Assembly: GCA_041653755.1 (NCBI GenBank)
Contig: JBAZEU010000003.1
Span: 18,738 to 82,737 of the forward strand
DNA from: Minisyncoccota bacterium
GTDB taxonomy: Bacteria > Patescibacteriota > Minisyncoccia > UBA6257 > UBA9933
Reading direction: 5' to 3'
Length of the DNA: 64,000 bases
Part shown: one piece after another, positions 3,561 to 57,922 of the stretch
How the letters are laid out: every line of letters starts with the position of its first letter
Numbering within the stretch: position 1 is the first letter of the stretch
Made by a program: the position numbers and the translations under genes
The notes under the pieces: generated by a model
What the model saw: only the letters and a program-made list of their open reading frames with translations
Database searches by the model: none
What the model was told of the DNA's origin: nothing

Positions 3561-5365
3561 AAGAAGCTATCCTTGATGATTTTGCCAAAGATTTAGATCT
3601 CATTGAGCTACCGCTCTCTGAAAAAGCTTTTAAGCTGGTAAAAGTGCTTATTCTTTTTGCGGTTTTGGCTGCAGTGGGAGAAATTTTGTTTTTGGGAGTT
3701 ATAAAAGGCAAATTCTATCAAAACAGAGCTCTTCTTAACGCTGCGGAAAAAACAACGCTTTTAGCCGAAAGGGGATTAATTTTTGACAGATTCGGCAAAC
3801 CCTTAGTTTCGAATTCTTCAACTTTCCGCCTGAATCTAAAAATTTCCAATTTTATCAAAGATAAAAACGAAGAAGAACGAACGATAAAAACGTTGAAAGA
3901 AGTTCTTGGTTTCACGACTGCTGATGTCGAAGATTTTTTGAAAAAGATAAAAGAAGTTGATTTAGAAACCCAAAACTCAATTGTCGTTAAAGAAATAACG
4001 CCTGCTCAAGCGCTGACATTGAAAAATTTAAACCTTGATTCTCTTGAGGTGGAAGAAGGATTCAAAAGAATTTACAATGAACCAGAAACTTTTTCTCATT
4101 TAATCGGCTATACGACCTTCACTAGCGCAAAAGACCTAGAGAAAGATTCTTCTTTGTCTTTTAATGACTTAGTTGGCAGAAGCGGTCTGGAAGCATATTA
4201 CAATAATGAGCTTAAAGGAGAAAATGGCATTATTCTTAGCTACCGCAACACCAAAGGAGAAATTATCGAAAAGAAACAGCTTAATAATCCTATTTCCGGA
4301 GAAAATCTTAATCTGACTATTGATTCTGAATTTCAATCATATTTCTATAACCGTATGCAAGAAGGGTTAAGAAGCTTAGGCAGAGACGCCGGGATTGGCA
4401 TTGCCATAAATCCTCAAAACGGAGAAGTTTTATCTTTAATAAGCATCCCCAGTTTCAACAATAATAAAATAACCCAAGAGGCCTTAACTAATCCCTCAAA
4501 ACCATTTTTCGATCGTGCGATAAGCGGCGCATACTCGCCCGGATCAACCATCAAACCGTTGGTGGCTATTGCGGCATTAAAAGAAAAAATAATCAGCCCT
4601 TTAAAAGAAATTCTATCAACCGGCTACATTGAAGTTCCTAATCCATATTATCCGGATAAGCCATCCCGCTTTCTTGACTGGAAACCTAATGGCTGGGTTA
4701 ATTTTTATTCGGCTATTGCCCGTTCTTGCAATATTTATTTTTACGAAGTCGGCGGCGGGTTTGAAGATCAAAAAGGTCTTGGCATCGAAAAATTAAAAAG
4801 TTACTGGGAAAAATTCGGTTTAGGAGAAAAAACTGGAATTGATTTGCCAGGCGAAGTAACAGGATTTTTGCCAGACGCTTCAACTAAAAAAGGAGGAGAT
4901 AAAATCTGGCGCGTAGGGGATACTTATAACGTTAGCATCGGCCAAGGAGATCTTTTACTTACTCCAATTCAATTAATAAATTATATCGCCTTGATTGCTG
5001 ACAACGGGAAAAATTATCGTCCTTTCGTTGATAAAAATATGGGAGTAAAACCCTTGAAGGACCTTTCAGACCTATTGCCTGAAATTAAAGAAGTTCAGAA
5101 AGGGATGATTGATGCCGTCATAAAGCCCTATGGCACCGCATATTCTTTGAACGACTTGCCGGTTAGCGTAGCGGCCAAAACTGGTTCTGCTCAAACCCAA
5201 AATAATACTGTCACTAATGCTCTTTTTGTAGGTTATGCGCCAGTTGAAAATCCTCAAATTGCAATTCTTGTATTGGTCGAGAATGCCAGAGAAGGAAGCT
5301 TGAACACATTACCGATAGCAAAAGACGTTCTGCTTTGGTATTATAATAAGCGAATCGCTCATTGA
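3533..5365 (+). CDS. mrdA: penicillin-binding protein 2 (peptidoglycan D,D-transpeptidase)
   Basis: N-terminal TM anchor, SxxK motif (PGSTIKP), SxN and KTG(S) motifs (AKTGSAQ); elongasome synteny. Confidence 0.85.
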   Translation: MAKNKEIYLEEAILDDFAKDLDLIELPLSEKAFKLVKVLILFAVLAAVGEILFLGVIKGKFYQNRALLNAAEKTTLLAERGLIFDRFGKPLVSNSSTFRLNLKISNFIKDKNEEERTIKTLKEVLGFTTADVEDFLKKIKEVDLETQNSIVVKEITPAQALTLKNLNLDSLEVEEGFKRIYNEPETFSHLIGYTTFTSAKDLEKDSSLSFNDLVGRSGLEAYYNNELKGENGIILSYRNTKGEIIEKKQLNNPISGENLNLTIDSEFQSYFYNRMQEGLRSLGRDAGIGIAINPQNGEVLSLISIPSFNNNKITQEALTNPSKPFFDRAISGAYSPGSTIKPLVAIAALKEKIISPLKEILSTGYIEVPNPYYPDKPSRFLDWKPNGWVNFYSAIARSCNIYFYEVGGGFEDQKGLGIEKLKSYWEKFGLGEKTGIDLPGEVTGFLPDASTKKGGDKIWRVGDTYNVSIGQGDLLLTPIQLINYIALIADNGKNYRPFVDKNMGVKPLKDLSDLLPEIKEVQKGMIDAVIKPYGTAYSLNDLPVSVAAKTGSAQTQNNTVTNALFVGYAPVENPQIAILVLVENAREGSLNTLPIAKDVLLWYYNKRIAH

Positions 5366-5439: not shown

Positions 5440-6429
5440 ATGAAAAGCGATTTGCGTCAAGATATAGTTTCCGGCGACTGGGTAATGATTGCTCCAGACC
5501 GGGCTAAAAGAGATAAAAAAGGACCCTTGGGATTAATCAAAGAAAGCAAAAGGAAAAGACCTCCTCAAAAAGGATGTGTTTTTTGTGACCCAAAGATAAA
5601 TCCCGGGAAACCAATTCTTCTTTATCCGAATAGAGAAGAATACTCAATCAGGGTTATCGAAAATAAATTTCCAGTGCTTACCCACGAAAAAAATCATGCC
5701 CGTTTTTTGAAAAAAGGACTTTATCGCGTAGTCGATGGAATAGGACATCACGAATTAGTCATTACTAAAAATCACGACAATAATTTCGCTCATTTAGAAA
5801 AAAATGTTGCTAATGACGTTTTCCAAGTTTTTCGTAGTCGGTATTCGACATTTTCTAAAGACTCTTGCTGCGCTTATGTTTCAATTTTTCATAATTGGGG
5901 ACCAAAAGCCGGCGCCTCAGTTTATCACCCTCATTATCAAATAATTTCAATGCCTGTTGTTCCGCCCGATATAAGACATTCTCTCGATGGCGCAATGCGG
6001 TTTTTTAATAAACATAAAAAATGTGTTCATTGTGAAATTATAAAATACGAGAAAAAAGAAAAAAAACGAATAGTTTATGAAAATGAAAACGCCATTGTTC
6101 TTGCTCCTTTTGTGGCTCGCGAACCGTTTGAACTGAGAGTATTCCCCAAAAAACATTTTCCTAATTTTGAAAGCACTCCGGAAAAAGATTTAGAAGGCGT
6201 GGTAGAAGCGCTGCAAAAAGCTTTATCAAAAATCGAGACGCGACTCCACGATCCTGATTATAACTTTTTTATCCACACGGCGCCGATAAAAGATGAAATC
6301 AAATATCCTTTTTATCATTGGCATATTGAAATTCAGCCGAAGATAAGCATTTCGGCCGGATTTGAATTAGCGACCGGCGTAGAAATAACCGTTGTCGATC
6401 CTAATGACGCCGCAAAAATACTGAAATGA
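5440..6429 (+). CDS. galactose-1-phosphate uridylyltransferase family protein (GalT-like, HIT superfamily)
   Basis: Cys-x-x-Cys zinc motif CVFCDP and His-Pro-His-x-Gln (HPHYQI) nucleotidyl-transfer motif characteristic of GalT. Confidence 0.6.
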   Translation: MKSDLRQDIVSGDWVMIAPDRAKRDKKGPLGLIKESKRKRPPQKGCVFCDPKINPGKPILLYPNREEYSIRVIENKFPVLTHEKNHARFLKKGLYRVVDGIGHHELVITKNHDNNFAHLEKNVANDVFQVFRSRYSTFSKDSCCAYVSIFHNWGPKAGASVYHPHYQIISMPVVPPDIRHSLDGAMRFFNKHKKCVHCEIIKYEKKEKKRIVYENENAIVLAPFVAREPFELRVFPKKHFPNFESTPEKDLEGVVEALQKALSKIETRLHDPDYNFFIHTAPIKDEIKYPFYHWHIEIQPKISISAGFELATGVEITVVDPNDAAKILK

Positions 6430-7148
6430 AAAAAATAATTGCTTTTAACTGGAAAATGAACCCAGCTTCTAATAAAGAAGTGAAAAAACTTTTTAAAATT
6501 GTTTCTAATTCTGATACCATTGTTTTCCCTCCTTTCGTTTATTTAAATACGCAACCAAAGCTTAAAAAGGCCCGATTGGGCGCACAAAACCTTTTCTGGG
6601 AAAATTCACCCCGCCAGCTGGCGGGTAGAGGAGCTTTCACCGGCGAAATTTCAGCATTAATGCTGAAAAATATGGGCGTTAAATATGTTATTATCGGTCA
6701 TTCTGAAAGAAGAAAATGGCAGCAGGAAACCGATTGGACAATAAATAAAAAAGTAAAAACCGCTCTAAAAGCAGGATTAAAGATAATCTTATGCGTTGGC
6801 GAAAATTATCAAATTAGAAAAAAGGGGATTAAAGCAGTTAAAAGCTTCATAAGAGCTCAACTCCAAAAAGATCTGAAAAAAGTTAATGGTCCGCTGATTG
6901 TGGCATACGAGCCGATCTGGGCAATTGGCAGCGGAAATTTTTGTAAACCCAAAGATGCTTTGGAAATAATAAAATTCATAAAAGAAATCATAAAACCTAA
7001 AACCCCAGTGCTGTACGGCGGTTCAGTCAACAGCAGAAACATTTTAGATTTCTTAAAATATGAAGAAATTGACGGCGTCCTGGTCGGCGGCGCCAGTGTC
7101 GACAAAAAAGAATTAAAATTAATATTGAAGAATATTTATGCTTACTAA
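6426..7148 (+). CDS. tpiA: triosephosphate isomerase
   Basis: FNWKMN, IIGHSERR, AYEPIWAIGSG signature motifs. Confidence 0.9.
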   Translation: MKKIIAFNWKMNPASNKEVKKLFKIVSNSDTIVFPPFVYLNTQPKLKKARLGAQNLFWENSPRQLAGRGAFTGEISALMLKNMGVKYVIIGHSERRKWQQETDWTINKKVKTALKAGLKIILCVGENYQIRKKGIKAVKSFIRAQLQKDLKKVNGPLIVAYEPIWAIGSGNFCKPKDALEIIKFIKEIIKPKTPVLYGGSVNSRNILDFLKYEEIDGVLVGGASVDKKELKLILKNIYAY

Positions 7149-22978: not shown

Positions 22979-23977
22979 ATGCTTGTTGATGACATTACAA
23001 TAAAAGTTTCTGCTGGAAATGGCGGAAAAGGAGCTGTAGCTTTTAATAAAAATCTAAAAAGCTTAGGGCCTGTGGGCGGAAGCGGTGGTCATGGCGGAAG
23101 CGTTTACGCCGAGGGTTCTTCCAATTTGAATGCTTTGGGCCAATTTCGGTTTAAAAAGGTGCTTGTGGCAGAAAACGGGATGGACGGCAGAGGACAATTC
23201 ATGGACGGTCACGACGGTAAGGACTTAATTCTAAAAGTTCCCGTAGGCACTATCATCCATAATCTCAGCTTAAAAAACGAAGCAGAAATCACGAAAATCG
23301 GCGAGCGTGTCCTTTTGGCCAAAGGAGGCAAAGGAGGCAAAGGAAACTTTCATTTCCGATCTTCAAAAAATACTTCACCTAAGCAATCTCAACCGGGACT
23401 GCCGGGAGAAAATTTTGATCTTCGGTTAGAATTAAAATTTATTGCCGATATTGGTTTTATAGGACTTCCGAATGTAGGAAAATCCAGCTTATTAAACGAA
23501 CTCACAAATTCCAAAAGCAAAGTCGCGAATTACCAATTTACCACTCTTGAGCCGAATTTAGGAATCTACTACGAATTAATTCTTGCTGATATTCCTGGGC
23601 TAATCGAAAATTCATCGCAAGGGAAAGGGTTGGGAATAAAATTCTTGCGTCACATCGAGCGAACCCGTATTCTTTTCCATTTTATTTCAGCTGAATCAAT
23701 CGATCCCAAAAATGATTACGAAATAATCCGTAAAGAGTTAGGCGCTTACAACAAAACTCTTCTTCAAAAACCAGAATATCTATTTCTTACTAAAAGCGAC
23801 CTATTAACGCCAGAAGAGCTCAAGAAAAAATTATCAATATTATCCGCCCTAGGCGGATCCGCCTCGGGCGGAAAAAAGATAAACTCGAACGCAATCGTAA
23901 TTTCAATTCTCGACCCGGACAGTTTAAAGAACGTAAAAGATATTCTTAACAAGATTAAACTGGAAAAATCGAAATAG
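22979..23977 (+). CDS. obg: GTPase Obg/CgtA
   Basis: N-terminal Obg fold (glycine-rich GGKGG repeats), G1 GLPNVGKSSLL, G3 DIPGLIE. Confidence 0.9.
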   Translation: MLVDDITIKVSAGNGGKGAVAFNKNLKSLGPVGGSGGHGGSVYAEGSSNLNALGQFRFKKVLVAENGMDGRGQFMDGHDGKDLILKVPVGTIIHNLSLKNEAEITKIGERVLLAKGGKGGKGNFHFRSSKNTSPKQSQPGLPGENFDLRLELKFIADIGFIGLPNVGKSSLLNELTNSKSKVANYQFTTLEPNLGIYYELILADIPGLIENSSQGKGLGIKFLRHIERTRILFHFISAESIDPKNDYEIIRKELGAYNKTLLQKPEYLFLTKSDLLTPEELKKKLSILSALGGSASGGKKINSNAIVISILDPDSLKNVKDILNKIKLEKSK

Positions 23978-24063
23978 CTTGACATATCGCATGAATTAGT
24001 AATATAATGGTCTTGTATTAACTAGGGGACTTAGTCGGGTTTCTAAAAAATAACAATAAAACA

Positions 24064-29663: not shown

Positions 29664-30401
29664 ATGTCAACACAATTCTTCGACGCTAAACAAAATAATA
29701 AGCTAGTTTTTGATATCGAGACCATAGGGGTTAATTTCGATTCCTTAGACGAAGCATCTCAAGAATCTTTAACTCGTTGGATTAAAAAAGAATCTGATTC
29801 AGAAGAAGATTACGAAGAGGCCCTAAAAGAAATGAAAGACGGACTTGGTTTTTCCCCATTAACTGGAGAAATTGTAGCCATCGGAGTTTTAGATGTTGAT
29901 AAAAATCAGGGCGTAGTTTGCTTCCAAGCGCCAGAAAAAAACTTAAAAGAAACTACCGAAGATGGAATTATTTACAAGCCAATGACTGAAAAAGAAATGC
30001 TGGAAAATTTTTGGAAAGGAGCGATGCAATATCAAGAGTTTATAAGTTTCAACGGCCGTGTCTTCGATGTGCCTTTTATGATGATAAGATCTGCTGTCCA
30101 TGGGGTTAAACCAACCAGAAATTTGATGGAAGGAAGATATTTATATCAGCAAAGAAGCGCTAAGCATATAGATTTGTTAGACCAATTAACTTTTTATGGA
30201 GCGGTTCGAAAAAGAGGGAGCTTGCATTTGTGGAGCAAAATCTTCGGCATCAAAAGTCCGAAAGAAGATGGGATTACCGGTGATGAAGTTGGAAAACTTT
30301 TTAAAGAAGAAAAATTTTGGGAAATTGCAAAATATAACGCAGGGGACTTAGTAGCAACAAAAGAACTTTACAAGAAATGGAACGATTACCTTAATCTATG
30401 A
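29664..30401 (+). CDS. RNase H-like 3'-5' exonuclease related to PolB exonuclease domain (YprB/PF10108-like)
   Basis: Exo I LVFDIETIG, Exo II FNGRVFDVPF, Exo III YNAGDLV. Confidence 0.6.
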   Translation: MSTQFFDAKQNNKLVFDIETIGVNFDSLDEASQESLTRWIKKESDSEEDYEEALKEMKDGLGFSPLTGEIVAIGVLDVDKNQGVVCFQAPEKNLKETTEDGIIYKPMTEKEMLENFWKGAMQYQEFISFNGRVFDVPFMMIRSAVHGVKPTRNLMEGRYLYQQRSAKHIDLLDQLTFYGAVRKRGSLHLWSKIFGIKSPKEDGITGDEVGKLFKEEKFWEIAKYNAGDLVATKELYKKWNDYLNL

Positions 30402-30631
30402 GTTTTAAGACTTGGGTAGGGGAGCATAAAAAGGACATACTTCTATTCTTATTACTATTCCTTATGTGTTCCTTATCTTTTGGATTGGGTTATTTGGTCA
30501 ATCGTGAATTTAACCACGCTCCGATTATTATTGAGAAAAGTGCCAATTTTACCTCAGAGCAATAAACGATGAGCTGTAAAATTGAGCATCCGCCTAAGTT
30601 TTTATGAGAATAAAATCTGGGTGGATAAGTA

Positions 30632-30661
30632 TTGACAATTAATGCTGTTTTGTGCTATAAT
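30632..30661 (+). promoter_or_regulatory. consensus sigma70 promoter (TTGACA-18-TATAAT) driving small-ORF operon
   Basis: perfect -35 30632-30637 and -10 30656-30661; first ORF has AAGGAGGT SD. Confidence 0.6.
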
Positions 30662-30726
30662 TCTTATAACAGCTTGAAAATCTACTAACGAGATTTTCTT
30701 TTAAAAACAAAATAAGGAGGTAAAAC

Positions 30727-30942
30727 ATGGGATGGAAATTGGTAATATTGATTGTGACATTGGTTGTACTATTGACGGTGTTCCTTAGAACTGGCCTAAA
30801 ACTGTTTTTCGAAAAGGAAAATGACAATGGCGTTTTATTTATCGCCGCCGCTACATTAATCGCCATCGCTATAAACTGTCTTTTTGCAGTAGGATTAGCT
30901 CATTTAGCGCATTGGTTATGGCAATGGCAACCAATAAGATAA
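30727..30942 (+). CDS. small 2-TM membrane protein (71 aa), hypothetical
   Basis: strong SD AAGGAGGTAAAACATG; two hydrophobic helices. Confidence 0.5.
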   Translation: MGWKLVILIVTLVVLLTVFLRTGLKLFFEKENDNGVLFIAAATLIAIAINCLFAVGLAHLAHWLWQWQPIR

Positions 30943-30953
30943 GGAGGATTCTT

Positions 30954-31091
30954 ATGAAAAAGTCCGGCAAAAAAGGATTACTGAAAGGGATAAAAAATCG
31001 TGATTTACATTTAGCCGATTTGATCGGCGATAAAGTGCCGAAAAAACGGAAACAGCACAAAAGGAGGAAAACGTGCCAACCACAAAAGTAA
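30954..31091 (+). CDS. small basic protein (45 aa, MKKSGKKGLLKGIKNRDLHLADLIGDKVPKKRKQHKRRKTCQPQK), hypothetical
   Basis: SD TAAGGAGGATTCTTATG; not in ORF track (<60 aa); shares a duplicated AAAGTGCCGAAAAAACG segment with 31255-31275. Confidence 0.4.
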   Translation: MKKSGKKGLLKGIKNRDLHLADLIGDKVPKKRKQHKRRKTCQPQK

Positions 31092-31255
31092 TTAGAACAA
31101 TAGGATTAATAATTACATTTGCTGGAGTGTTTTTAATGATAAAATCTCCGCTGACCACCCTGAAAAGAAAAGTCCCGAAAAAATGGAAAATAGGATTCGC
31201 GATTTATCTTATCGGTTTCATGATCGTACTTTTATCACCAGCTTTCGAGCGGTGA
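31073..31255 (+). CDS. small 2-TM membrane protein (60 aa, GTG start), hypothetical
   Basis: SD AAAGGAGGAAAACGTG; two hydrophobic helices; overlaps preceding mini-ORF by 19 nt. Confidence 0.45.
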   Translation: MPTTKVIRTIGLIITFAGVFLMIKSPLTTLKRKVPKKWKIGFAIYLIGFMIVLLSPAFER

Positions 31256-31292
31256 AAAAGTGCCGAAAAAACGAAAACCAAATAAAGAGTAA

Positions 31293-31337
31293 AAAGCCCG
31301 TTCAAGGACAAAAACCTTGCGGGCTATTTTATTTTTG
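31293..31337. terminator. bidirectional intrinsic terminator between convergent genes
   Basis: agcccgttcaagg-acaaaaa-ccttgcgggct flanked by A-run (5') and ATTTTATTTTT (3'). Confidence 0.65.
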
Positions 31338-31350
31338 AATAAATTCGCTT

Positions 31351-32166
31351 CTACAAATATCCAACCTGCTTCAACCAATATTCATTTTCCCATTCCCAAA
31401 GTTTCTTAGCGCCCAAAAATGCCTGGTAGTCGCCTTGCCAATACGGAAATTCTTTTAATTCAATTTGCCCTTGAAGCGGAGACCATTCATGTTCACAGGT
31501 TTTAGATTTTTTATCGTAAGCGCCATTTTTATAAGGCAAACTAATTTTTTCTCTTCCGCCTTTCACACGTAAAGTCGCTCCGCATTTCGAACAAGTTTTA
31601 ATTTGATCAATTCTTAAAATCCAGCGCGTCTGAAGATTTTTTAAATCCTTTGCTAACGCCGCCACATAGGCAGAAGTTTGAAGATTATAATCCCGATAAA
31701 TTGCTTTTGATGTTTTGATGTCTAAAACTCCGAATTTGCCGTCAATCAAAGCAACGGCATCAATGGTTCCGGCATATTTTTCGTCGTGATTGGCAACTCT
31801 CTTTTCAATATATTCCGGGTCAACCTGAATATGATTTTGTTGATAAAAACTTATAAACGATTCAATAGCCGGCACAATTACAGGGTCTAAAATAGGGGAT
31901 TGGCCTAATAAAATTTGTTCTACGGCTTCGTGAATCTTCGTTCCTTCATCGGCCGATTTGTTTTTTACCGCTTCACTAGCGGCAAAATTATTCATTTCAG
32001 CGTAAAATTTGTACAACTGCGGTTTTGATTTAATATCAACTATTTTCGTTACTCGGGGATACCAAACGCCGTCAACATCATAGCCAGACATCCCTTTAAA
32101 ATGTTCGAGGTTAGAATAAAACATATATATTAAGCTTATTTTAACAGAAACAGGGGAGCCCCACAA
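31351..32166 (-). CDS. PD-(D/E)XK family nuclease (Cas4/RecB-like, phage-exonuclease-like) with inserted zinc ribbon
   Basis: YPRVTKIV N-motif, GTIDAVALIDGKFGVLDIKTSK (D..D-x-K core), QTSAYVAAL (QxxxY), CSKC...CEHEW Cys/His cluster; true start may be internal Met. Confidence 0.6.
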   Translation of the reverse strand: MWGSPVSVKISLIYMFYSNLEHFKGMSGYDVDGVWYPRVTKIVDIKSKPQLYKFYAEMNNFAASEAVKNKSADEGTKIHEAVEQILLGQSPILDPVIVPAIESFISFYQQNHIQVDPEYIEKRVANHDEKYAGTIDAVALIDGKFGVLDIKTSKAIYRDYNLQTSAYVAALAKDLKNLQTRWILRIDQIKTCSKCGATLRVKGGREKISLPYKNGAYDKKSKTCEHEWSPLQGQIELKEFPYWQGDYQAFLGAKKLWEWENEYWLKQVGYL

Positions 32167-32258
32167 TGGCTAAGTTGACCTTTTATCGTAAACTTGGTAT
32201 ATTGACAACAACGAATTATAAAAAGTTTATTTTATCTGTTCATTAAAAAAGGAGGAAT

Positions 32259-32564
32259 ATGAAAAGTAATCGGCAATGGATTTCAGATGACACGGCATAT
32301 TTGGTGTTTGCTATGGGAGCATGTATTTCCTGTATCGCTATGATGATTGGACCATGTTTATCAAACTGGTGGAAAATTTATAATCTATATTTTTTAACCG
32401 TTCTTATCTTTTTTCTTTCTACTTTGTCAGTAGCAATCATTATTAATCAACGAGAGAAAATCAAATACTGGATTTTAAGAACAGCTGATTTATTTATTGT
32501 TATATGTATTGGTCCCTTATTAGATCTTACCTCAGACGACGAGGCTGAAAATAATATCACCTAA
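32259..32564 (+). CDS. hypothetical 3-TM membrane protein (101 aa)
   Basis: strong SD AAAAAGGAGGAATATG; hydrophobic helices; acidic C-terminus. Confidence 0.5.
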   Translation: MKSNRQWISDDTAYLVFAMGACISCIAMMIGPCLSNWWKIYNLYFLTVLIFFLSTLSVAIIINQREKIKYWILRTADLFIVICIGPLLDLTSDDEAENNIT

Positions 32565-32699
32565 TGACCACGAACTTTCCCGAAGCGCGAAACGATGAGT
32601 GATTAGAAAGAATCACAAAGATGAGGGAAGGTTCTTGCTGCTTTTCTTACCGGCCCTTTGTCATTGTCAGCGCTTCGGGAAACCATTTCGGAGAAAATA

Positions 32700-32873
32700 A
32701 TGGAAAAAATATTGAAAGAGATTGCATTGGGGTTAATCCAACTTGCATTAGGATTTTTAGCGATAACGATTATATTCGGGCTTTGGATTAACATCGAAAA
32801 AATCTGGTCAAAAATAAAGTATTCTTTCCATCTTTGGTTAGGAAACTTACTGAATTCCATATACCCTTATTAA
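32700..32873 (+). CDS. hypothetical small membrane protein
   Basis: ORF 32658-32873; GGAG 8 nt upstream of internal Met at 32700; one TM. Confidence 0.3.
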   Translation: MEKILKEIALGLIQLALGFLAITIIFGLWINIEKIWSKIKYSFHLWLGNLLNSIYPY

Positions 32874-33320
32874 TTTCTCTTAAAAGGGGAGAAATCGAAA
32901 GGGGAGTCATAGCCGATTACAAACCCCGCAGAGAAGAAATGTCTACCAAAAAGGATCCACCTCCTTCTGGCTAAGACAATCTTTTTTTCTCTGCGGGGTC
33001 ACAAATTATAAACCCATAGCGAGCATACGGAGCTATATTGCGTAACGCAATCCACTCCTTTAAACCTCGCTATGGGTTTTGTTTTACCTACTGAAATTAC
33101 TATCTGTCGCAAAAGAATTATTTTGCGACAGATACAAGGCTCCTTTTTCTACTATAAAACCTCTCCCCCAGTGCTCGGAGAATATTGATTTTCAGAACGT
33201 CCCACAGGTAGCCGAAGCTTGGTATCAGCCGCGATGATTTCGGCTACCGAGGGAAAAGAAAATTTTGTCGCTGGAACAAAATTATTCTGGTTCTGAAAAA
33301 CAATTTACCAGAGCACTCAC

Positions 33321-33611
33321 CTATTTCGCTATCCCCTTGAGCAAAGAGATGATTTGTTCAAATATCCAAACGATTGCGTGCCAAACTAATTTGAAAATTT
33401 CTACCAAACTCATTCCCATACTGGTCTTAAACCACAAATTAATTTTTTGGAATATATTTAAACCGGTTTGTATCCCCTCTTTTACATTTTGCTGATTTAA
33501 AACCTGATTCGCTTTATCAAAATCAATTGAGCTGCTGGCCTGTTTAACCAAATCAATAGCGCTGGTAGCATGTTTAAATAAATCACCAAAAAATTGGTTT
33601 AAGTCAATCAT
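33321..33611 (-). CDS. hypothetical protein downstream of gltX
   Basis: ORF trimmed to internal Met (MIDLNQFF) to avoid overlap with gltX; no motifs. Confidence 0.35.
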   Translation of the reverse strand: MIDLNQFFGDLFKHATSAIDLVKQASSSIDFDKANQVLNQQNVKEGIQTGLNIFQKINLWFKTSMGMSLVEIFKLVWHAIVWIFEQIISLLKGIAK

Positions 33612-47583: not shown

Positions 47584-47657
<74 letters not shown>

Positions 47658-47757: not shown

Positions 47758-49803
47758 TTACTTTTCTTTGCCTAAGAATTTCTTCCAGCCTGGAAAATCT
47801 TTGTACGTTCTATCAGGGGCAGAAGGCAATTTGCAATCTTGCTTGTATCTTTTAACGTATTCTCTGGAGTTTAATGCTTTCAATTTTTTCGCAATCTCGC
47901 TAGCCTCTTGCCACGTCCGATAGAAGTCTGTTCCGAGAAAGATTTTCCAGCCTGGGAAATCTTTGTATTGCCTATTAGGTTGGCGACGAAGCCTACGATC
48001 TCGCTTATACTTTTGAAAATATTCTGATTGAGTTAATATTCCCAATTTTTTCGCAATCTCGCTAGCCTCTTGCCACGTACCATAAAGCCCTCTTTCTCCC
48101 CTTAGAAAAACTGCGAAGCCAGGGAAATCTTTGTACAAGTCTTCCGGATGATGACAAAGCATACGATCTTTCTTGTACTTCTTAAGATATTCTGATTTGC
48201 TTGAGATGCCTAATTTTCTCGTAGTTTCGCCTGCCTCTTGCCATGTTGCATAGAACACTCTTTTTGTTCCCAGAAAAGCTGCAAAGCCAGGGAAATCTTT
48301 ATATGTGTAAGGCCTGCCAGGAAGCTTACTGTCTTGTTTACGCTTTCTCGCATATTCCTCTAAACTAGATATCCCCAATTTTCTCGCAGCCTCGCCTGCT
48401 TCCTGCCATGTTGTATAGACTTCTTTTGTTCCGAGAAAAACTTTCCAGCCAGGAAAATCTTTATATATTTCATTGGGGCAAGCAGGTAATTTATAATCTT
48501 GTTTGTACTTTTTCCCCCATCTGTATTCTGTAACGCTAGATATTCCTAACTTTCTCGTAGCTTCGCCTGCCTCTTGCCAGGTCTTATAGAAAGGCTCATT
48601 AATTCTTTTGATCACATTGAGGATATCAACCTGATCATCGGAAAAAATGAAGTCAAAGGCTTTACCGCTGACGTGAAGAACCTCTTTGTCTAAAACAAAG
48701 TGGTTGCCAGCGAACTCTTTGACTCTCCCGGCCATTTCCTTGACCATAGCTAATCTTTCACAATTAGCCACAAAATCAAGAACAACGACTTTGGATTTAC
48801 CAAGAACCTTTCTTAATCCTCGGCCAAGTTGCTGGTAAAAGATAGTTCTGGAGTCAGTGCAACGTAGGAACACAATTACTTCGACATCAGGTATATCAAT
48901 GCCCTCGTTGAATTTATTCACAGCTAAAATATATTGCTGTGAATCTTCACGGAAGACACTGAGTCTTCTTCTGCTCTCTTTCTCCTGTATGCCTGAATGA
49001 TAAGTTAAGGCGTTAGGAAAAAAAGATTTGAAGGTTTCCACGTGTTCTATCCCTTCACAGAAGATAACTGCCTTTTTGTCTGTTCCTGCGTATTGCTGAA
49101 TCTGGCGGGCAATCTCATCGTCTCTTCGCTTAATAAAGATTGTTTCGTTAAGCTGTTTGATGTAGATACGTCTGCCCTTTCTCAAAATTCCCTTAAGAAT
49201 CTTCTTAAGTTTCCAGTGGCTTAACCGATCGTTGAGTATGTGATACTCAACCTGGGTCAGCCAACCCTTGGCAATTGCTTCTTCTAAAGAATAATTAACT
49301 ATCTCTTTGCCAAAAAATTCTCGGATATCTTTTAAATCCATTCTGTCAGGAGTAGCGGTGATTCCGAGAAGTTTTTTCGGCTTGAAATAGCAAATTACAT
49401 CTTTAAAAGTAGAAGCCTGACCGTGATGAGATTCATCAACAATGATAAAGCCGAACTCATCTTCAAAGAAAACATGTTTCCAGTTCCTATAGGTCTGAAA
49501 AGAAGCAAAGACAACGTTGGCTTGATCGGCATTAAAATCTTTACTTGAACCATAGAAAGGTTTAAGTATAACTTGTTCGCCCAAAACTTTTCTGAACTCA
49601 AGCATTGCCTGATCGAGAATCCCGTTGTTGTGACAAAGGAATAATCCTTTGTGACCATTATTTATTTCTTTCTGGGCCCAGAAAGCAGAAACGATAGTCT
49701 TGCCTAGTCCGGTAGCCATAACTACCAATGCGGTTGCTTTTTCTTTGAAAGCATTAACGATCAAATCAAGAGCCTTTTGCTGATAATCAAACAAATTCAT
49801 CAT
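47758..49803 (-). CDS. SF2 helicase (ResIII/XPB-like DEAH) with five C-terminal ~55-aa tandem repeats
   Basis: motif I ATGLGKT, II DESHH, III TATPDR, VI QQLGRGLR; C-terminal repeats TWQEAGEAxRKLGISSxxEYxxKYKxDxKLPxxPxxxYKDFPGWxxFLG x5 (47758-~48590). Confidence 0.75.
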   Translation of the reverse strand: MMNLFDYQQKALDLIVNAFKEKATALVVMATGLGKTIVSAFWAQKEINNGHKGLFLCHNNGILDQAMLEFRKVLGEQVILKPFYGSSKDFNADQANVVFASFQTYRNWKHVFFEDEFGFIIVDESHHGQASTFKDVICYFKPKKLLGITATPDRMDLKDIREFFGKEIVNYSLEEAIAKGWLTQVEYHILNDRLSHWKLKKILKGILRKGRRIYIKQLNETIFIKRRDDEIARQIQQYAGTDKKAVIFCEGIEHVETFKSFFPNALTYHSGIQEKESRRRLSVFREDSQQYILAVNKFNEGIDIPDVEVIVFLRCTDSRTIFYQQLGRGLRKVLGKSKVVVLDFVANCERLAMVKEMAGRVKEFAGNHFVLDKEVLHVSGKAFDFIFSDDQVDILNVIKRINEPFYKTWQEAGEATRKLGISSVTEYRWGKKYKQDYKLPACPNEIYKDFPGWKVFLGTKEVYTTWQEAGEAARKLGISSLEEYARKRKQDSKLPGRPYTYKDFPGFAAFLGTKRVFYATWQEAGETTRKLGISSKSEYLKKYKKDRMLCHHPEDLYKDFPGFAVFLRGERGLYGTWQEASEIAKKLGILTQSEYFQKYKRDRRLRRQPNRQYKDFPGWKIFLGTDFYRTWQEASEIAKKLKALNSREYVKRYKQDCKLPSAPDRTYKDFPGWKKFLGKEK

Positions 49804-57800: not shown

Positions 57801-57828
57801 CTCCTTTTTAAGGAGAAGAGGCCGGGGC

Positions 57829-57922
57829 AGGATTCGAACCTGCATGGACTTATCGTCCTGCGAGTTTGCAGCCCGCTTTGCCTGTGCCTTATTACTCTTC
57901 GGCTACCCGACCGTTAATTATT
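57829..57922 (-). tRNA. atypical 94-nt tRNA-like gene, candidate anticodon GCA, long variable arm and ~10 extra nt in D region
   Basis: acceptor GGTCGGG/CCCGGCC, T-arm GCAGG-TTCGAAT-CCTGC, variable arm GGAC-GATAA-GTCC, anticodon stem GCGGG/CTCGC loop CTGCAAA (U33, A37), D-arm GCC-12nt-GGC; 5' half too long for canonical cloverleaf. Confidence 0.45.

Follow-up and report, generated by a model that had tools for sequence, protein, structure and literature searches.

We analyzed a 64,000-nt stretch of a Minisyncoccota genome (GenBank assembly GCA_041653755.1, contig JBAZEU010000003.1, positions 18,738 to 82,737), referred to below as the window, and within it a patch at 30632-33320 that combines a small open reading frame (ORF) operon, a nuclease gene and hairpin-dense DNA. 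All coordinates are positions within the window. We find that this patch is the replication-terminus junction of a Paceibacteria chromosome, from the candidate phyla radiation (CPR), and that a 28-bp palindrome at 33104-33131 is, on the evidence of its sequence and distribution, probably a chromosome-dimer-resolution site (dif). The explanation we favor for the patch as a whole, with a probability of roughly 0.7, is a terminus junction that holds this dif, a core nuclease, a structured element designated H4, and lineage-specific filler. A preliminary description of the same DNA had read it as accessory, either a small-peptide and nuclease module or what is left of a degraded phage or mobile element.

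A candidate dif site at the terminus junction

Genes to the left of 30.4 kb lie nearly all on the + strand and those to the right of 33.3 kb nearly all on the - strand. GC skew stands at +0.05 between 1 and 24 kb and at -0.17 between 33.1 and 40 kb, and the last steady fall of the cumulative GC-skew curve starts at ~33.0-33.1 kb. Since gene orientation and skew both switch at the patch, we conclude that two replichores converge there. The G+C content of the patch (0.36-0.38) equals that of its flanks, with no compositional island, and the scanned genes outside it are all housekeeping genes (those for MreB, SecA, PGK, Obg, aminoacyl-tRNA synthetases, MurG, FtsW, DNA polymerase III tau and others). 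A Logan contig (L001) covers the same region at ~100% identity. For wider comparison we used 80 species-level related loci, each spanning +/-6 kb; in most of them tblastn recovered the gene order ftsW-murG-gltX-(gap)-nuclease >< (gap)-orf55-exonuclease-L27 >< L9. The palindrome lies in the first of these gaps:

33104-33131, unstranded: candidate dif site, CTGTCGCAAAA-GAATTA-TTTTGCGACAG, 28 bp, 11-6-11 layout

Canonical dif sites consist of two 11-bp half-sites around a 6-bp central region and occur in single copy near the GC-skew shift point (PMC5357621). The candidate has this layout, with two inverted 11-bp arms and a 6-bp center, and it fits the published definition in its position at the skew shift as well; the perfect palindrome around it extends to 33101-33134. 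Among the hairpins of the patch, this palindrome alone is widely conserved, at 80-93% identity in ~35 species by blastn. A profile scan found one strong copy per locus in ~70 of the 80 related loci, always between gltX and the nuclease gene, and exactly one copy in the window, with no others in ~0.9 Mb. Across the ~1.7 Mb of related sequence examined, there is one strong copy per locus. The position of the site is constant while the genes that flank it (those for M23 peptidase, MurC and LAGLIDADG proteins) vary between relatives, and the motif lies in non-coding DNA, upstream of gene starts in relatives and intergenic in all of the viral contigs described below.

The collected sites have the arms yTGTCGyAAAA / TTkTGCGACAG. 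Arm positions 2-11 are conserved at 55-100%, giving 10-11 conserved positions per arm, and the spacer is variable, with 27 distinct sequences in 44 sites. At arm position 9 an uncompensated A.G occurs in 20 of the 44 sites, and the same asymmetry is found in 99 of 120 metagenomic copies among the matches listed. This is the pattern expected of two non-identical half-sites, and from it the palindrome does not appear to behave as an RNA or DNA hairpin across relatives. Archaeal dif sites were identified in silico as conserved, unique, intergenic sequences at the terminus that have 14-18 of 28 positions in common with bacterial dif (PMC2958812); our candidate fits these criteria as far as they are checkable.

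A scan of metagenomes with the exact pattern found the motif in at least 120 contigs, each with one site. Among the matches listed, at least 42 contigs have the syntenic context seen here. In several syntenic contigs the site lies between the M23 gene and L27 and the nuclease gene is absent, and the site therefore follows the point of convergence rather than the nuclease gene. GC skew is higher to the left of the site than to the right in 14 of 14 syntenic contigs and in 7 of 8 contigs in which the motif is linked to an Xer-family gene.

LAGLIDADG homing-endonuclease genes adjoin the site in several relatives. In L020 such a gene (3862-4428, Pfam 5e-24) ends at or a few nucleotides from the dif-like palindrome, as do LAGLIDADG genes in L033, L051 and L072. 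In L227, a short contig from the closest relative, the end of a gene at 958-1140 abuts the site; its product is LAGLIDADG-like by eye and has no Pfam hit. The outer part of one arm of the L227 site is altered, reading GCGTCAC for GCGACAG.

We found no description of a dif site for Patescibacteria in the literature searched, and the literature naming both CPR and XerC was unrelated to the dif question. The candidate is probably of a sequence type not described in the literature searched.

Xer genes, known dif systems and phage-borne copies

In ~20 further contigs among the matches listed, an Xer-family gene lies near the motif, and in nearly all of these the site is upstream of the gene start. 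The gap between site and xer is 30-43 nt in L098, L107 and L152, and in three more contigs the site overlaps an extended start of the ORF. The motif-linked Xer proteins match XerC, XerD and XerA models at 1e-56 to 1e-75, and eleven of them share 40-46% identity with Xer proteins from CPR genomes already known. An xer gene is present at the terminus locus itself in L046 and L052; the CPR Xer proteins of both score below every equivalog cut-off. In L046 (Colwellbacteria), two tandem xer genes fill the gltX-nuclease gap at the same locus, a pair that recalls canonical XerC/XerD systems, and an 11-6-11 palindrome (ATTGCGTATAA-TTTAGA-TTAAACGCAAT) lies 16 nt upstream of the first. In L152 the motif (6647-6672) lies 43 nt upstream of an xer gene (5657-6604) whose best homologs are labeled Dehalococcoidia/Chloroflexi, and whose product passes the curated cut-off of the XerA-type NCBIfam model NF040815 (225 versus 220 bits).

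By analogy with known systems, one or more Xer tyrosine recombinases encoded outside the window would occupy both 11-bp arms. In a chromosome dimer, the two dif copies would then synapse at cell division, and strand exchange across the 6-bp spacer would resolve the dimer into monomers.

The E. coli XerC/XerD-dif and B. subtilis CodV/RipX-dif sites are likewise 28 bp long, with two partly symmetric 11-bp arms and a 6-bp center, and some relatives of the present site come closer to canonical dif in having the spacer TGTATA and arms ending in ...ATAA/TTAT... The L073 site (TTGTCGTATAA-TGTATG-TTATACGACAT) is intermediate between the present motif and classical dif. The motif differs from canonical dif in its arms (TGTCGCAAAA / TTkTGCGACA versus GGTGCGCATAA / TTATGTTAAAT) and in being far more symmetric, perfectly so in this genome.

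Other features recall the systems with a single recombinase. XerS/difSL of streptococci and lactococci and XerH/difH of Helicobacter and Campylobacter use one recombinase, and in the ~20 contigs above the site lies near a single xer gene; several of these, with the site immediately upstream of xer, resemble the xerS-difSL "single module". An A-tract at the arm end adjoining the spacer is also common to the present motif and to difSL and difH (TGTCGCAAAA here versus TTTCCGAAAA and AGTTATGAAAA). However, the spacer is 6 bp here versus 11 bp in difSL, the Paceibacteria lineage of the window has no xer gene adjacent to the site, and the motif-linked proteins score best on XerC/XerD/XerA models and far lower on XerS. 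By description, archaeal XerA/dif of Thermococcales and Sulfolobales offers a further likeness, with near-perfect 11-bp inverted repeats and a 6-bp spacer, and the motif-linked Dehalococcoidia-type Xer passes the XerA-type model NF040815; the present lineage, in contrast, is bacterial. The Dehalococcoides dif sites predicted by Kono et al. (2011), for example CTTTTTTATTCTATAAACTATTTAAATC, look nothing like the present motif and, if the unlabeled columns of the supplement are read correctly, are 7-21% of the genome away from the skew shift.

The exact motif also occurs, once each and intergenic, in 25 IMG/VR viral contigs (L202-L226; for example L225:3242-3267, L202:3470-3495, L212:12476-12501 and L209:4088-4113). 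An Xer-like gene was found in the fetched stretch of only one of the 25, and four have a large terminase gene at a distance of 0.5-1.8 kb and lack an ORF of integrase size next to the site. Integrative mobile elements exploiting Xer (IMEX) carry attP sites that mimic dif, and terminus and dif regions are integration hot spots (PMC5357621). The viral contigs, with an exact host-type site and no adjacent recombinase, resemble the IMEX CTXphi, VGJphi and TLCphi, and they are candidates for phages that imitate dif of the host and make use of its Xer; the motif may also have a phage-specific role in them. They differ from the IMEX examples, which are filamentous, in being tailed phages with terminases.

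The window differs from an IMEX insertion in that it has no integrated element between two sites, and the profile scan found no second dif-like site in it. The possibility that the filler of the patch derives from dif-carrying phages was rejected, as only the palindrome matches them. With the palindrome alone shared and no second site, there is no evidence of an integrated element here.

The nuclease, the H4 element and the lineage-specific filler

The site is bordered by conserved genes on both sides of the patch:

31351-32124, - strand: PD-(D/E)XK nuclease of MGME1/RecB/Cas4 type, 257 aa, with an inserted CxxC...CxH zinc ribbon
30398-30565, + strand: orf55, a 55-aa protein with a single transmembrane (TM) segment, whose start overlaps the stop of a PolB-exo-like 3'-5' exonuclease gene
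33321-33611, - strand: orf96, encoding a small conserved protein, located downstream of gltX at the edge of the non-coding stretch

The nuclease has the restriction-endonuclease-like fold, matching solved members of the group, and is MGME1/RecB-like. In 20 homologs, D122, D135-I-K137, Q149-T-S-A-Y153 and C178xxC181...C210xH212 are invariant or nearly so. The fold, the QxxxY motif and the Cys/His ribbon described earlier therefore hold; the assignment to the Cas4 type does not. Conserved cysteines and histidines are limited to C178, C181, C210 and H212 in the inserted ribbon, so that the four-cysteine Fe-S cluster of Cas4 and AddB is lacking, and there is no helicase partner and no cas gene or CRISPR nearby, the neighbors in all loci being gltX, murC, orf55, the exonuclease gene and L27. 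A stand-alone bacterial protein of 257 aa with this inserted ribbon also differs from the MGME1 and RecB/AddAB/Dna2/RecE/Cas4 clade in general. No NCBIfam model matched, and the score for Pfam PF12705 was below threshold; there are matches to phage exonuclease families in PHROGs, and the PADLOC match to Cas4 reaches only 1e-5.

More than 2,000 homologs of the nuclease were found at E <= 1e-3. The best 120 are 67-95% identical, and the best are labeled Wolfebacteria, Colwellbacteria or Paceibacterota. Relatives are present in 457 species-level Genome Taxonomy Database (GTDB) genomes, and in syntenic loci the protein is 60-77% identical by tblastn, generally above gltX or murG. The preliminary view of the nuclease as an accessory gene is at odds with this distribution and the conserved synteny, which supply half of what that description had named as its own refutation; as far as sequence and gene order indicate, it is a core housekeeping gene and a conserved neighbor of dif, neither mobile nor part of a defense system, and it would be used in DNA maintenance. 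We considered a model in which the nuclease acts on the palindrome and rejected it as the main model: the site is present without the nuclease gene in L085, L105, L133, L138, L140 and L142, and elsewhere it is found with xer genes instead. On the other side of the nuclease, orf55 is kept in 56 of 81 loci and is a real conserved micro-protein that marks the edge of the convergence gap. The orf96 protein was found in 7 loci by tblastn and belongs to a 12-locus cluster.

Around the candidate dif, the DNA between orf101 and orf96 is densely structured; a further terminator lies beyond the nuclease gene:

31292-31333, unstranded: bidirectional intrinsic terminator with a GC stem, an A-run before it and a T-run after it; z = -4.5 (+) and -3.8 (-)
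32576-32682, + strand: 13-bp perfect long-range inverted repeat, arms 32576-32588 and 32670-32682, enclosing a branched hairpin, z = -4.2
32923-32999, + strand: hairpin H1, 17-bp stem with a structured 43-nt loop, z = -8.7 (+)
33010-33079, + strand: hairpin H2, 14-bp stem followed by a U-run on the + strand, z = -6.9 (+) and -8.0 (-)
33178-33311, - strand: H4, a 134-nt three-way junction that starts 10 nt after the orf96 stop codon

The segment 32874-33325 folds at -179.6 kcal/mol versus -102 in shuffles (z = -14.9), and individual hairpins have z values of -4 to -9. The strong hairpins noted earlier in this stretch are indeed there, namely H1, H2, the palindrome (33101-33134) and a branched element (33184-33304). 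Its description as free of ORFs between 32880 and 33320 is right only if short frames are disregarded, no frame of more than 52 aa being open there. The 13-bp inverted repeat is real, with its left arm at 32576-32588 and not, as had been given, at 32594-32606. The idea that this DNA is a degraded remnant fares worse, as it holds both a conserved dif-like site and a conserved structured element.

That element is H4. Read on the - strand, it aligns with copies in L013 and L016 in which the loops are invariant and the stems compensated. A covariance model found further copies in L058, L018 (two) and L068 and weak ones in L008 and L030, and none in 630 kb of more distant contigs. Over six copies, 88% of cells are paired versus 69% in shuffles, and double changes affect 34 of 49 pairs versus 14.6 in shuffles and 10-14 with slid partners; none of 500 shuffles reaches the observed value. 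The L018 H4 has extra hairpins inserted in two loops, and counts of G.U pairs are similar on both strands. Most copies start 10-32 nt past the stop codon of a gene oriented the same way, which is the nuclease gene in L013, L016, L018 and L030 and orf96 here. Because of this placement just past stop codons, H4 looks like a 3'-untranslated region (UTR) element or a small RNA gene, which sequence comparison ties to the terminus gap of Wolfebacteria-like genomes. Rfam gave no match at E <= 1 in 32880-33320, nor for the H4 copies in L013, L016, L018 and L058; a Thr-leader match on the terminator was spurious.

Conservation of the other structures is narrower. The terminator at 31292-31333, common to the converging small-ORF operon and nuclease gene, is 84-90% conserved directly after the nuclease gene in L003, L021, L027, L030 and L056. 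H1 is conserved only in L227, where it is ~90% identical and has a G.U pair on the + strand. H2 too is conserved only there, with its stem kept and its loop replaced by a different self-complementary sequence; it is likely the terminator of the orf101 transcript. A ~370-nt segment (32505-32876), with orf57 and the 13-bp inverted repeat in it, has no counterpart in L227 (594-697). This difference is either a recent insertion here or a deletion in L227 and has no recognizable mobile-element features.

The remaining features are small ORFs and their signals:

30632-30661, + strand: sigma-70-type promoter TTGACA-18-TGcTATAAT, 12/12 match with an extended -10 TG, driving the small-ORF operon
30727-30942, + strand: orf71, small orphan membrane protein, two hydrophobic segments, preceded by a perfect AAGGAGG
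30954-31091, + strand: orf45, orphan basic peptide, 17 K+R in 45 aa (38%), perfect Shine-Dalgarno sequence (SD), with a KVPKKRK unit
31073-31255, + strand: orf60, small orphan membrane protein, two hydrophobic segments, perfect SD ahead of a GTG start, internal KVPKKWK
31019-31278, + strand: direct repeats of the operon, 35 nt, at 31019-31053 and 31244-31278, 86% identical
32175-32242, unstranded: divergent promoter-like pair, TTGACC-17-TATATT with TG at 32175-32203 on the + strand (orf101) and TGAACA-16-TATAAT at 32242-32215 on the - strand (nuclease)
32259-32564, + strand: orf101, narrowly distributed small membrane protein with ~3 hydrophobic segments and a perfect SD
32700-32873, + strand: orf57, possible orphan membrane peptide with a weak SD, absent from L227

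Much of what had been said of the small-ORF operon was borne out. The perfect TTGACA-18-TATAAT promoter is present, a pattern with two exact matches in 64 kb versus 0.06 expected; the other match (23979-24008, +) directly follows obg (22979-23977). The genes for 71, 45 and 60 aa each follow a perfect AAGGAGG, 5-6 nt before the start; orf71 and orf60 each encode two hydrophobic segments, and the KVPKKRK duplication of the basic peptide exists at the DNA level. Four of the eight + strand copies of AAGGAGG, which occurs 13 times in the window, precede orf71, orf45, orf60 and orf101 (30714, 30941, 31061 and 32249). An SD-like motif precedes only 8 of 43 ORFs of at least 200 aa and is missing from 35, and the translation signals of the orphans are therefore unlike those of core genes. 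The H1 loop contains another AAGGAGG, on the - strand (32960). Further copies of the 21-nt KVPKK(R/W)K repeat lie at 30959 and 31169, and the repeats are best read as an internal duplication within the orphan operon. They were also considered as Ter or iteron-like sites, which we rejected as they are conserved in no relative. The two halves of the divergent promoter-like pair each match 10 of 12 positions and are consensus matches only. The coding status of orf57 is uncertain because it overlaps an 85-aa ORF on the - strand that the gene caller prefers.

The proposal that the small ORFs lie outside the core genome is supported: orf71, orf45, orf60, orf101 and orf57 have no tblastn match in the 80 related loci. 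Among 5.8 billion proteins orf71 matched only itself, and among 1.84 billion representatives orf101 has one true relative, 54% identical, which occupies the same position on L227 beside a 98%-identical nuclease N terminus. A holin-like or toxin-like nature found no backing in the phage and defense scans, which gave no significant Pfam, PHROG or PADLOC match for any small ORF; for orf71 and orf60 there is no lysin nearby either, and only the two-TM topology fits.

The gaps in which these ORFs lie are hypervariable. The nuclease-orf55 gap measures anything between 3 and ~2,000 nt in relatives, and 22 of 28 SD-preceded ORFs there are singletons. The gltX-nuclease gap is bimodal in length on both sides of the palindrome; relatives have an M23 peptidase gene before it (43 loci) and a Mur ligase gene after it (38 loci), and in many the two slots hold murC or nothing. 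M23 and murC are absent from the whole window, and tblastn at E <= 10 found no pseudogene trace of them in the gap, so that we rejected a decayed murC or M23 gene as the origin of the dif-adjacent DNA. MITE-like repeats were likewise discarded: L227 aside, neither the window nor ~1.7 Mb of related loci contains a second copy of H1, H2 or the small-ORF operon. The promoter operon, orf101, orf57, H1 and H2 are lineage-specific filler of two hypervariable slots.

These signals suggest how the patch would be transcribed. The promoter at 30632 would drive orf71-orf45-orf60 into the bidirectional terminator at 31292-31333, which would also end the nuclease gene, and the divergent pair at 32175-32242 would serve orf101 and the nuclease. 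From the other side, gltX-orf96 would run into H4 and a terminator-like hairpin on the - strand (33182-33164), with H4 probably transcribed with or just after gltX-orf96. H2 on one strand and H4 with this hairpin on the other would thus end converging transcripts, and dif would lie between the stops.

Two genes elsewhere in the window are unusual in their own right. A ResIII/SNF2-type helicase of 681 aa (47758-49803, -) contains two "Integrase repeat unit" domains (PF14882, INT_rpt), an unusual combination, and its gene adjoins that for tRNA-Gln (47584-47657). The tRNA-Cys at 57818-57904 (-) is called by ARAGORN at 87 nt with the anticodon at position 36; this is long for tRNA-Cys, and the gene may have an insertion or an atypical structure.

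Alternative readings and implications

Several observations weigh against a dif at the terminus. Neither Xer nor FtsK is encoded in the window. A block of - strand genes at 25-27 kb makes the cumulative skew maximum broad (25-33 kb), and in non-syntenic contigs with enough flank the skew test gave 9 of 12, too few for significance when taken alone. The site matches E. coli dif, in the sequence given by Kono et al., at 14 of 28 positions, the 99th percentile of random 28-mers in this AT-rich window; the sites of L035, L046 and L073 reach 18 of 28, a value that five random 28-mers of the window also reach, so that neither value is significant by itself. Finally, the palindrome is perfect in this genome, where a hairpin with a 14-bp stem is also possible, and relatives mostly have the site 5-130 nt ahead of the following gene (murC, the nuclease gene or xer), as an operator might be. 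These last points, with the 30-43 nt spacing before xer in L098, L107 and L152, are what a transcription-factor operator or a 5'-UTR regulatory hairpin for the downstream gene would explain. Yet that gene varies and may be missing altogether, the next same-strand gene in the window is ~970 nt away, and the motif occurs once per locus, which is not regulon-like. The A.G asymmetry breaks pairing in 45-80% of copies, and neither an operator nor a hairpin accounts for a variable spacer between fixed arms, the Xer linkage, the phage copies or the skew at the terminus. We regard this reading as quite improbable. More improbable still is that the hairpin stretch, palindrome included, is a stack of intrinsic terminators or mRNA-stabilizing stem-loops without site-specific function. 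Its place between convergent transcripts, the U-run of H2, the terminator-like hairpin at 33182-33164 and the clear bidirectional terminator at 31292-31333 are in keeping with such a stack, but terminators are not conserved in sequence across genera, whereas the palindrome is conserved at 80-93% in ~35 species and found by profile in ~70 loci. The palindrome also has no U-run on either side, and the covariation and invariant loops of H4 are not terminator-like.

The original view, in which the whole patch is accessory or left over from a degraded phage or mobile element and its small membrane or toxin-like peptides act together with a Cas4- or phage-type nuclease, accommodates the orphan ORFs with their perfect AAGGAGG and perfect promoter, unlike core genes, as well as the matches of the nuclease to phage exonuclease families and the status of terminus and dif regions as integration hot spots (PMC5357621). 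It is nevertheless unlikely. Conservation divides the patch: the nuclease is core, syntenic in dozens of species and more conserved than most neighbors, and the small ORFs are orphans; the two never co-occur elsewhere in the 80 loci. No collection of phage or plasmid DNA has a match to the 2.7 kb, the small ORFs match nothing in PHROGs or PADLOC, and the G+C content is that of the rest of the window. A second dif-like site flanking the filler, as an IMEX would require, is not found, and the dif-carrying phage contigs have only the palindrome in common with the window. A terminus junction with a dif thus remains our preferred explanation.

A broader proposal can be advanced only tentatively. 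TGTCGyAAAA-N6-TTkTGCGACA may represent an undescribed dif family of CPR/Patescibacteria and Dehalococcoidia-type Chloroflexota, unlike the Dehalococcoides predictions of 2011. It would have been copied by integrase-less tailed phages, the first candidate tailed IMEX phages of these hosts, and would be accompanied at Wolfebacteria-like termini by a new 134-nt three-way-junction RNA.

The CPR/Patescibacteria make up a large share of bacterial diversity and are mostly uncultured. To our knowledge, almost nothing is known of how their chromosomes are replicated and segregated. A recognizable dif motif would provide a landmark of the terminus, of use in checking and orienting metagenome-assembled genomes, in estimating replication rates and in picking the housekeeping Xer paralog, and it would mark a probable integration hot spot. 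It also suggests a way to link phage contigs with the same site to CPR or Chloroflexota hosts, and its occurrence beside a Dehalococcoidia-type Xer suggests that earlier Chloroflexi dif predictions need revisiting. H4, supported by covariation, is a further RNA candidate in a phylum for which few non-coding RNAs are known. The orphan ORFs, whose expression is predicted from their signals, suggest that the terminus-flanking gaps of streamlined genomes gather well-signaled, lineage-specific mini-genes.

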